From a virus (Duplodnaviria; Heunggongvirae; Uroviricota; Caudoviricetes), in IMG/VR virus record IMGVR_UViG_3300049830_000314: a stretch of DNA of 31,280 bases; one strand, 5' to 3'. Below, piece after piece: positions 972 through 1,763 of the stretch. Below the pieces are notes generated by a model that ran no database searches, was not told the DNA's origin, and saw nothing but the letters and a program-made list of their open reading frames with translations. Each line of letters opens with the position of its first letter. The first letter of the stretch is position 1. The position numbers and the translations under genes were made by a program.

Positions 972-1044
972 TGGAGCCTGGGGGAGTTCGTTATTCTCCG
1001 CCTCGTCATTTAGAAATGACCGCTTTACTCTGAGCTACCCAGGC
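972..1044 (-). tRNA. Non-canonical tRNA-like RNA, CUA-containing 6/8-nt anticodon loop
   Basis: Acceptor GCCTGGG/CCCAGGC plus T-CCA. Anticodon arm GTCAT-TTCTAA-ATGAC. T-arm GGAG-AATAACGAA-CTCC lacks TTCRA. Confidence 0.75.
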
Positions 1045-1047
1045 ATA

Positions 1048-1136
1048 TGGTGTTCAGCGATGGTCGCGAAATCCACCTGCGCACTCTTCAGCTTTTACAC
1101 TTGGAGCTGCTCTTAACCGCTATGAGCTACCTGAAC
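1048..1136 (-). tRNA. Non-canonical tRNA-like RNA with 17-nt anticodon loop region
   Basis: Acceptor GTTCAG/CTGAAC plus A-CCA. D-arm GCTC-ATAGCGGTTAA-GAGC. Anticodon arm GCTC-CAAGTGTAAAAGCTGAA-GAGT. T-arm GGTGG-ATTTCGCGA-CCATC. Confidence 0.75.
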
Positions 1137-1139
1137 ATT

Positions 1140-1217
1140 TGGTCACCGGAGAAGGAATTTCGTCCCCCAATACTACTCTCTTTTACAATCGCAGTATCTG
1201 TTATGAGCACCCGATGA
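1140..1217 (-). tRNA. Non-canonical tRNA-like RNA, degenerate D-arm, 14-nt anticodon loop
   Basis: TCATCGG/CCGGTGA-CCA. Anticodon arm ATACTGC-GATTGTAAAAGAGA-GTAGTAT. T-like arm GGGGA-CGAAAT-TCCTT. Confidence 0.7.
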
Positions 1218-1219
1218 GG

Positions 1220-1300
1220 TGGCTACCAGGGTTGGGATTTAACCAACGACCCCTACTCTCTTTTACAATCGTAGTGCTCTAGTCACTGAGCTACCCGGTA
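1220..1300 (-). tRNA. tRNA-like RNA, near-canonical body with 14-nt anticodon loop
   Basis: Acceptor TACCGGG/CCTGGTA plus G-CCA. D-arm GCTC-AGTGACTA-GAGC. Anticodon arm CTAC-GATTGTAAAAGAGA-GTAG. Variable GGGTC. T-arm GTTGG-TTAAATC-CCAAC. Confidence 0.85.
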
Positions 1301-1308
1301 TCTCTTTC

Positions 1309-1376
1309 TGGAACATCCCTCAACGCCCTGGGATAATTCACAATCTCGGGAGGTCGGCGTTTCCTCCAATGATGTT
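1309..1376 (-). ncRNA. CCA-terminated rod-like RNA within the array
   Basis: AACATC/GATGTT-CCA terminal stem, internal AACGCC/GGCGTT, apical GATTGTGAATTATC resembling the neighbours' GATTGTAAA loop. Confidence 0.55.
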
Positions 1377-1402
1377 TCCATCACCATATCGAGACCAAAT
1401 TG

Positions 1403-1494
1403 TGGCAAGGGCAGAAGCTCATTACTCTCCGTCTGTCCCCATTCTAAACCTTCTGGCTTAGAGCGGGAACCGCATTATTCTATGCTACACCCTC
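1403..1494 (-). tRNA. tRNA-like RNA with ~16-bp extended anticodon arm (possible CUA anticodon plus 15-nt insertion)
   Basis: Acceptor GAGGGTG/TGCCCTT plus G-CCA. D-arm GCAT-AGAATA-ATGC. Anticodon arm GTTCCCGCTCTAAGCC-AGAA-GGTTTAGAATGGGGAC. T-arm GGAG-AGTAATGAG-CTTC. Confidence 0.75.
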
Positions 1495-1497
1495 ATA

Positions 1498-1533
1498 TGG
1501 TTACTGCATCAGCTACTTAGTTCTTTTTGCAGT
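1498..1533 (-). ncRNA. CCA-terminated minihelix (36 nt)
   Basis: ACTGCA-N19-TGCAGT-AACCA, directly abutting the CCA of the preceding element. Confidence 0.6.
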
Positions 1534-1607
1534 TGGTGGGGATGGGAGGTCTCTACTCTCCATACTTCCGACTTTGACATCAGTCCTCATCTTTGAGGTA
1601 CATCCCC
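1534..1607 (-). tRNA. Non-canonical tRNA-like RNA, 6/8-nt anticodon loop (GTCAAA)
   Basis: Acceptor GGGGATG/CATCCCC plus A-CCA. D-arm CCTC-AAAGAT-GAGG. Anticodon arm CTGAT-GTCAAA-GTCGG. T-arm GGAG-AGTAGAGAC-CTCC. Confidence 0.78.
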
Positions 1608-1610
1608 GCT

Positions 1611-1662
1611 TGGTGCTGTATTGGTTCTTCCGCTCCCGTAGGTTCTTCCGCGCCGTTACAGC
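1611..1662 (-). ncRNA. CCA-terminated small RNA with internal direct repeat
   Basis: GCTGTA/TACAGC plus A-CCA, enclosing two copies of GCGGAAGAACC. Confidence 0.62.
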
Positions 1663-1665
1663 ATT

Positions 1666-1699
1666 TGGTGCAGCCGCAGCACTTTCGTGCCTCAACTGC
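1666..1699 (-). ncRNA. CCA-terminated minihelix with GNRA tetraloop (34 nt)
   Basis: GCAGTTG-AG-GCAC-GAAA-GTGC-TG-CGGCTGC-ACCA. Confidence 0.68.
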
Positions 1700-1702
1700 A
1701 TT

Positions 1703-1763
1703 TGGTGTAAGTTCAACGATTTGCTTTCCAGTCTTGCGACTTTCTTTGTTTCGTTTCGCTTAC
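1703..1763 (-). ncRNA. First CCA-terminated RNA of the array (61 nt)
   Basis: GTAAG/CTTAC plus A-CCA, inner AACGA/TCGTT, apical AGTC-GCAA-GACT. Its 5' G follows TATAAC after a 6-nt gap, the expected TSS position. Confidence 0.62.

Follow-up and report, generated by a model that had tools for sequence, protein, structure and literature searches.

What is an operon of tRNA-shaped RNAs that cannot decode doing in the genome of a tailed phage? The question is raised by IMG/VR record IMGVR_UViG_3300049830_000314, a stretch of 31,280 nucleotides of viral DNA (Caudoviricetes; hereafter the window), on the minus strand of which eleven encoded CCA ends follow one another between positions 1763 and 972. 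A prediction made from the sequence alone (hereafter the original prediction) had described these as a head-to-tail array of tRNA-like RNAs with remodelled decoding parts. In the computational analysis reported here, the array was found to consist of selected, modular, non-decoding tRNA-shaped RNA genes, a conclusion that we hold with high confidence.

All eleven CCA ends were recovered at the coordinates first listed, and the elements were named E1 to E11 in the order of transcription. The spacers between them are short, as predicted, with a length of 3-8 nt (mostly 3 nt). A terminal stem adjoins the encoded CCA in 10 of the 11 elements; the claim that every element has an acceptor-like stem does not hold for E7, the CCA of which lies at 1309. 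Stems were scored if they had at least 6 bp, ended 0-2 nt before a CCA and started 0-10 nt after the previous one. With these settings, nine of the ten testable elements were hits, compared to 0.34 ± 0.62 hits (maximum 4) in 1000 dinucleotide shuffles and at most two in 792-nt slices taken elsewhere in the window. E1 could not be scored, as it has no previous CCA, and its own stem has 5 bp. The acceptor stems comprise seven pairs in E2, E4, E6, E8, E9 and E11, six in E3, E5 and E10, five in E1 and none in E7. Five elements are full cloverleaves (E4, E6, E8, E10 and E11) and not six as had been proposed, because E9 is without a D-stem; E1, E2, E3 and E5 are stem-loops. The middle loops of E4, E6, E8, E9, E10 and E11 measure 6, 4, 14, 14, 17 and 6 nt, respectively, and GTTCRA is missing from all six cloverleaf-type elements, in agreement with the earlier statement that none has a 7-nt anticodon loop or a TTCRA T-loop. 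A GG in the D-loop was found only in E10 of the window and not in the homologues of E10. The expected weakness of tRNA-finder hits was borne out as well: ARAGORN reported neither a tRNA gene nor a tmRNA in the window, with lowered thresholds yielding noise only, and the Rfam tRNA model RF00005 matched only E8 (41.6 bits, above the gathering threshold) and E11 (27.7 bits, below it). An assembly error, one of the possible refutations named beforehand, was ruled out by run X3 of a separate study, which shows no difference from the window over positions 700-2300, and by two Joint Genome Institute contigs, L011 and L012, which are identical to the window.

Syntenic loci (referred to by L numbers) were reached via homologues of the flanking proteins. 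Five syntenic relatives have homologous RNAs with compensatory changes in their stems. An array of four elements, E1-E4-E10-E11, follows a similar promoter in L013, L015 and L016/L017. In L014 there are a small hairpin and a single E11-like body that lacks CCA, and L046/L047 have no array at the corresponding position. The gap at the array position measures about 1090 nt in the closest syntenic relative and about 1260 nt in another syntenic contig. Low-depth contigs from runs X5 and X6 represent closer strains, and both have an extra GAAA-capped hairpin with CCA, a paralogue of E2, inserted ahead of E4. Their listed substitutions fall in loops or spacers, preserve pairs (G-U to A-U in E4) or have the partner base in the unlisted zone at the contig end. 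Taken together, the differences of X5, X6 and the relatives indicate that whole modules come and go. L016 (GCA_003987695.1, RXKH01000098.1) belongs to an assembly labelled Acinetobacter sp., possibly by a binning artefact, and was not used as host evidence.

The RNAs are better conserved than their surroundings, E4 being 90.5% identical to its homologue in L013 and 91.9% to that in L016, compared to 62-65% and 54-59% at the DNA level for three flanking genes. Covariation was scored on hand-specified cloverleaves from only five to seven related arrays, the kinship of which inflates the scores, so that the shuffle counts are not probabilities: for E4, 100% of the cells were paired, 6 pairs were changed on both sides and 0 of 500 shuffles reached the score; for the E6/E11 family the values were 98.8%, 7 of 14 pairs and 0 of 500; and for E10 (3 sequences) 98.3%, 5 pairs and 2 of 500, with 31-63% of the cells paired in slid controls. 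These counts do agree with the contrast in identity.

Transcription of the array would start from a predicted phage promoter with a TTCCTCAAA box and an extended -10 motif (1770..1802, minus strand). The predicted start at 1763, already part of the original prediction, derives from the extended -10 motif, which recurs in relatives: box and -10 motif stand at equal spacing ahead of the arrays in L015, L016 and L048 (twice), and the extended -10 motif is also present in L013; a sigma-70 scan of the window, on the other hand, did not have the array promoter among the promoters listed. A terminator-like hairpin (891..918, minus strand) closes the unit and is weak evidence alone, as one such hairpin was found compared to 1.6 expected in shuffles.

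Three of the cloverleaves, E4 (1534..1607), E6 (1403..1494) and E11 (972..1044; all elements lie on the minus strand), have in common a D-loop of 6 nt that lacks GG and a T-stem of 4 bp with a loop of 9 nt and are referred to as family A. A model made from E6/E11 sequences only (R1) finds E4 at 35-41 bits, compared to 23 bits for a real tRNA. E4 has a 6-nt middle loop with UGUCAAAG, an invariant T-loop and an ACCA end. E6, a paralogue of E11, has a long tetraloop-capped middle arm and ends in GCCA (z -3.7); fragments of it in X5 and X6 suggest that its acceptor stem is compensated. E11 ends in UCCA and has a 6-nt middle loop, in place of which its relatives have a long tetraloop- or pentaloop-capped hairpin. 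Across the family, the acceptor, D and T arms persist while the middle arm is exchanged, from the loop of E11 and the long stem of E6 to an 8-9-bp stem with a GAAA or pentaloop cap in relatives. In L048 (1267-1413; identical in L049), a 147-nt element has one acceptor stem with UCCA around two D arms and two T arms and amounts to two tRNA bodies joined via their middle arms, the inner acceptor being closed by a loop with UGUCAAAAG. L048 (890-1032 and 1115-1263) and L049 also encode a pair of paralogous, structured RNAs with a length of about 145 nt, each with its own TTCCTCAAA promoter and a T-arm-like hairpin and neither with an Rfam hit.

In seven E6/E11-type bodies, including the outer body of L048, the D-loop of which was registered by hand, exactly two of the 54 D-loop x T-loop column pairs vary and stay Watson-Crick in all rows, namely D4-T6 (A-U once, G-C six times) and D5-T5 (U-A four times, C-G three times), which are adjacent and antiparallel. 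This two-pair pattern was reached by 0.7% of the 5040 row orders, a value that is optimistic given the relatedness of the rows; the D5-T5 pair alone was reached by 42 of 500 shuffles (six rows), and E4 does not fit this register. In E6/E11, the two pairs probably replace the pairing of G18/G19 with positions 55/56, from which we infer that the L-shape is under selection. Such an elbow, with two covarying D/T-loop pairs and neither GG nor TTC, would be a natural alternative to the known tRNA L-shape and thus relevant to tRNA structure and engineering.

The simpler elements differ considerably from one another. The leader RNA E1 (1703..1763) is A-rich and has a 5-bp terminal stem, an internal tetraloop hairpin and an ACCA end (z -3.0), and its terminal stem recurs as first element of the arrays in L013, L015 and L016. 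E2 (1666..1699) is a minihelix with a 7-bp acceptor-like stem (G1-C72, C2-G71, G4-C69), a GAAA tetraloop and ACCA (z -3.6), and E3 (1611..1662) has a 6-bp acceptor-like stem, a purine-rich loop, in which the single change listed for X5 falls, and ACCA. E5 (1498..1533) is a weak, lineage-specific hairpin (z -1.0) with two unpaired bases before its CCA and is missing in L013, L015, L016 and X6. E7 has two parts: E7a (1342..1396), a three-way junction without CCA, has in its minimum free energy fold a 7-bp stem, a GAAA hairpin and a T-arm-like hairpin with a 9-nt loop, and E7b (1309..1341) is a weak hairpin followed by CCA without a proper acceptor stem. The portion of E7a reported for X5 is unchanged, with three changes in the neighbouring spacer.

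A common sequence is displayed in the middle loops of E4, E8, E9 and E10, which present U-G-U-(A/C)-AAA(A)G on different scaffolds. E8 (1220..1300), the most tRNA-like element, has a 14-nt middle loop with a Tyr-type UUGUAAA, a T-loop without C56 and a GCCA end, and is present as a variant in X5; E9 (1140..1216) has the same 14-nt loop and ends in ACCA; and E10 (1048..1136), also ending in ACCA, has the 17-nt loop UGUAAAAG, which reads UUGUCAAAG in relatives. Four copies of the motif were found in the 792 nt of the array compared to one in the other 61,768 nt (both strands of the window). The motif recurs, again on different scaffolds, in the arrays of L013, L015, L016 and L048, and its C version is found in the relatives' E10, in most of their E4 (not in L013) and in the hairpin closing the inner body of the L048 double element. 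The text U-G-U-(A/C)-A is that of the anticodon loops of tRNA-Tyr (GUA) and tRNA-Asp (GUC), both of which are queuosine-family tRNAs. The determinant of TGT is a U-G-U in a hairpin loop, also outside of tRNA (PMC1950534), and minihelices with YGUN are cut by colicin E5 with the preference A > C > G > U (PMC1635277). By analogy, recognition of the displayed loops by colicin E5/TGT-like enzymes is plausible.

The ends of the elements bear on how the RNAs would be released. U at -1 together with G at +1 was found in E2, E3, E6, E10 and E11 (U at -1 in 5 of 10 elements). The acceptor sequences vary from element to element as well as from homologue to homologue. Bacterial RNase P reads N-1 and the RCCA at the 3' end, with a preference for U at -1 (PMC11143913), and the match of the U at -1 and of the NCCA ends to these preferences makes it likely that the transcript is cut into units. 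Processing of the transcript by host tRNA enzymes is accordingly what we would expect by analogy, and we consider it probable. RNase P would cut at the 5' end of each stem, aided by the U at -1 and by NCCA, and trimming behind the CCA would take place at the short A/U spacers.

What the released RNAs would do is less certain. Our preferred but tentative reading, to which we give somewhat less than even confidence, is that they are processed, non-decoding mimics serving as decoy substrates for tRNA-targeting host enzymes. The host tRNA machinery would divide a single transcript into its units as described, and the products, in the least certain step, would act as expendable look-alike substrates in two ways: by offering various acceptor stems with a free CCA, which is what CCA-modifying toxins read, and by carrying the Tyr/Asp-type U-G-U-(A/C)-A loop, which nucleases and modifiers of queuosine-family tRNAs recognise. 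In favour of this reading are the covariation in three families, the conservation of E4 above that of its neighbours, the turnover of whole modules, the exchange of the middle arm, the enrichment of the loop motif, the presence of ordinary tRNAs in the same phage, the U at -1, the sufficiency of minihelices for FaRel2 and colicin E5 and the alarmone hydrolase gene nearby. Because they do not decode, such mimics may be abundant without disturbing translation. Decoding would be left to the ordinary tRNAs that the same phage encodes 6-9 kb downstream of the array (L011:7423-9828) and that are biased to Gly, Asp and Thr. ARAGORN predicted Gly-GCC, two Asp-GUC, Thr-UGU and Thr-GGU in L011, and Rfam added two further tRNA hits, one of which is of the Asp-GUC type by inspection, giving three Asp-GUC-type genes; tRNA-like genes missed by ARAGORN lie near 7500-7578, 8548-8633, 8750-8822 and 9630-9708. 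A more far-reaching version, which we regard as possible rather than probable, is a dedicated RNA-only counter-defence cassette in which modular, genome-encoded minihelices and re-engineered L-shaped bodies, with a two-pair elbow and an exchangeable middle arm, present acceptor ends and Tyr/Asp anticodon loops as decoys titrating tRNA-targeting immune effectors. If true, it would correspond, on the tRNA side, to RNA anti-CRISPRs.

Several results weigh against the decoy reading. The displayed loops measure 6 or 14-17 nt and not the 7 nt that most enzymes read, which is why their recognition is rated only as plausible. The encoded 3' CCA, claimed to run through the whole array, does so in the window and not in relatives, where the homologues of E11 end in CCC (L013, L015 and L016) or have no CCA (L014). 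No element fits the one toxin with known determinants that was compared: FaRel2 pyrophosphorylates minihelices and reads pairs 1, 2, 4 and 5 (bioRxiv 2024.07.05.602228), and at most three of the four determinants tested (G1-C72, C2-G71, G4-C69 and purine5-pyrimidine68) occur in any element, so that a specific FaRel2 fit was rejected; other toxSAS have other specificities. Two genes downstream of the array lies an alarmone hydrolase gene of the SpoT/Mesh1 type (window 1-156, minus strand; L011:1492-2196), the product of which matches the solved alarmone hydrolases 7qoe (E 1.7e-23) and MESH1 (E 1.8e-5) with intact HD..ED and AD..HN motifs, and alarmone hydrolases of this type can reverse CCA pyrophosphorylation (bioRxiv 2021.04.30.441581). 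This gene is present without an array in L046, was not called near the array of L048 and is frameshifted beside an intact array in L015 (7054-7777). An obligatory coupling of the two was thus rejected and the hydrolase regarded as context and not as a partner; together with the incomplete FaRel2 determinants, this separation weakens a simple link to CCA toxins. In the best-studied case, the rescue of a T5-like phage from retron Eco7 by its tRNA-Tyr needed an intact anticodon and intact stems (PMC11555353), which points to translation rather than to a decoy and so is no direct precedent for the decoy mode. Finally, the strong conservation of the E4 D- and T-loops fits a specific partner better than a generic bait, and the small, kin-inflated samples behind the covariation count here as well.

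The alternative that survives best would use the tRNA shape as a chassis for excision and stability; as a scaffold or aptamer comparable to the tRNA-like domain of Y RNAs, the displayed loops would bind a particular protein of phage or host that takes no part in tRNA attack. The interchangeable middle arm on a fixed body, the remodelled elbow with its covarying pairs, the double body of L048 with one acceptor and the invariant T-loop of E4 are in its favour, but in the loci examined no gene comes and goes with the array, the minihelices E2, E3 and the X5/X6 insert consist of little beyond acceptor and CCA, and the displayed loop is specifically anticodon-loop text; we regard this alternative as conceivable but less likely than the decoy reading. 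Less likely still, the RNAs would titrate housekeeping targets (synthetases, EF-Tu, RelA or TGT) or be charged as non-ribosomal aminoacyl donors. The 7-bp acceptors with discriminator and CCA and the U-G-U hairpin loop, the TGT determinant cited above, speak for such targets, and the nearby (p)ppGpp-type hydrolase would fit a dampened stringent response. Acceptors and discriminators, however, vary between homologues (A73 or U73 in E10), which argues against one synthetase identity, the G3-U70 alanine mark is found in no element except possibly as U3-G70 in E9, and no aminoacyl-transferase was found in the window.

It is very unlikely that some members are unusual decoders such as amber or frameshift suppressors. 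E11 does present CUA in a 6-nt loop, lacking a single base for a 7-nt CUA loop, and E8 exceeds the Rfam gathering threshold, but consensus bases of the T and D arms are missing, homologues of E11 have a capped hairpin without an anticodon, and TAG ends 6 of the 35 genes of the window, so that no recoding is evident. Amber suppression by, or an intron in, E6 and E11 was rejected on this count of TAG and on the variation of the middle arm in length and cap among homologues. It is just as improbable that the hairpins act as DNA, as recombination or integration sites or structural elements, with the RNA being incidental. tRNA 3' ends commonly serve as attachment sites, and modules are gained and lost whole, which would suit a role of the DNA, but the many G-U pairs, GNRA tetraloops and strand-specific CCA are RNA features, the promoter lies exactly at the first stem and the D- and T-loops covary. 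Decaying tRNA pseudogenes, to which the irregular E5, E7b and E9 and the L014 remnant without CCA might point, are largely refuted and hardly worth considering, as stems change in compensation, identity is far above that of flanking genes, the same non-canonical features occur in all homologues (which are not, as the original prediction had allowed for, canonical tRNAs with uncompensated counterparts here), and whole modules come and go while ordinary tRNAs are kept 6-9 kb away, by which a decay of the phage's tRNA set is likewise rejected.

The array belongs to a large, uncultured phage. The longest contig with these proteins measures 161 kb and the holders are freshwater metagenomes, with no RNA holder among those listed; no cultured relative was found, the RNA ligase being 28-33% identical to the best phage records among the matches listed. 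On the minus strand, genes for a HAD/PNKP-like phosphatase, an NrdG-like radical SAM protein, a sigma-like protein (3106-2240) and a 129-aa open reading frame (ORF) precede the array, which is followed by a 211-aa ORF, the HD hydrolase and, further along, an extracytoplasmic function (ECF) sigma factor. The 211-aa protein (window 194-829; L013:5479-5985) resembles a degenerate paralogue, without HExxH, of a SprT-like HExxH protein encoded just upstream in relatives, and possibly has a degenerate SprT-like metalloprotease fold; the 129-aa and 211-aa flanking proteins gave no functional lead otherwise. The PNKP-like HAD phosphatase (window 3994-4569) and an Rnl2/DRB0094-family RNA ligase (30240-31229) may form an RNA repair pair. 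Elsewhere in the window (6346-6515, minus strand), a stand-alone RNA of about 165 nt has a consensus sigma-70 promoter, an 8-bp terminal stem and a multi-branch fold of -48 kcal/mol, and no Rfam hit.

Compared to canonical tRNAs (RF00005) and phage tRNA operons, the array has the 7-bp acceptor, U8, the D-stem, the encoded CCA and the head-to-tail order with short A/U spacers, but neither a 7-nt anticodon loop nor GTTCRA, and several members are bare minihelices. A tmRNA was ruled out, as ARAGORN found none and there is no G3-U70 pair. Phage tRNAs that counter defence systems (tRNA-Tyr against retron Eco7 PtuAB, tRNA-Lys against PrrC and PARIS; PMC11555353) are likewise phage-encoded, with an own promoter and Tyr-type loop text, but they are functional decoders in need of their anticodon, whereas the RNAs of the array cannot decode. 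Against tRNA-targeting immunity, phages are known to use replacement tRNAs and repair enzymes; decoys that do not decode, if true, would be a third route. The acceptor minihelices read by FaRel2 and the anticodon minihelices read by colicin E5 and TGT demonstrate that recognition requires no more than a stem with CCA or a YGUN loop, but they are synthetic laboratory constructs that are not genome-encoded, and the FaRel2 match is incomplete here.

No description of such an operon was found in the literature searched, most subscription journals lying outside of the search, and Rfam 15 has no entry for the RNA families. When viral, metagenome and genome collections were scanned for patterns of the E8/E9 loop, the E4 D-arm and the arms of family A, chance hits or nothing came up, and protein-anchored searches gave no further loci. 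The only hit among 50,697 phage records, a generic tRNA-like piece in a YrlA array of Rhizobium phage RHph_TM30, was rejected as a homologue for this reason. The array of this phage (MN988521.1; L002:3290-4440) is itself an unannotated Y RNA-like repeat array that gives two YrlA hits and lies immediately upstream of a TROVE gene; one of its units comprises an almost complete tRNA body, the enlarged loop of which contains UGUAA. The RNAs described here are thus real, selected and undescribed in the literature searched, and since tRNA finders and Rfam miss them, phage annotation overlooks a conserved gene class.

Two known systems come closest. YrlA Y RNAs (RF02553; PMC4201824) are non-decoding tRNA mimics, often arrayed and substrates of tRNA enzymes, and their order of T arm, closed acceptor and D arm is shown by the inner body of the L048 double element. 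Unlike them, the array has an open acceptor with CCA in the normal order and a non-canonical T-loop; YrlA/YrlB covariance models gave no hit at E<=10 in the window (1-6000), E<=2 in four relatives or E<=1 in L011, and the genes on either side of the array in the window and in loci L011-L049 (about 40 kb) include no Ro60/TROVE gene. The tRNA regions of T4 and T5 yield, by tRNA processing, stable CCA-ended, non-decoding tRNA-like RNAs (species 1 and 2; RNA I-III), one to three among real tRNAs. The array would be comparable to these in kind but is a dedicated operon, and no sequence similarity was found in the phage collection. By analogy, the array would work most like the YrlA RNAs or the stable RNAs of T4 and T5, as tRNA mimics handled by tRNA enzymes, and the operon is small enough to be tested directly in laboratory strains.

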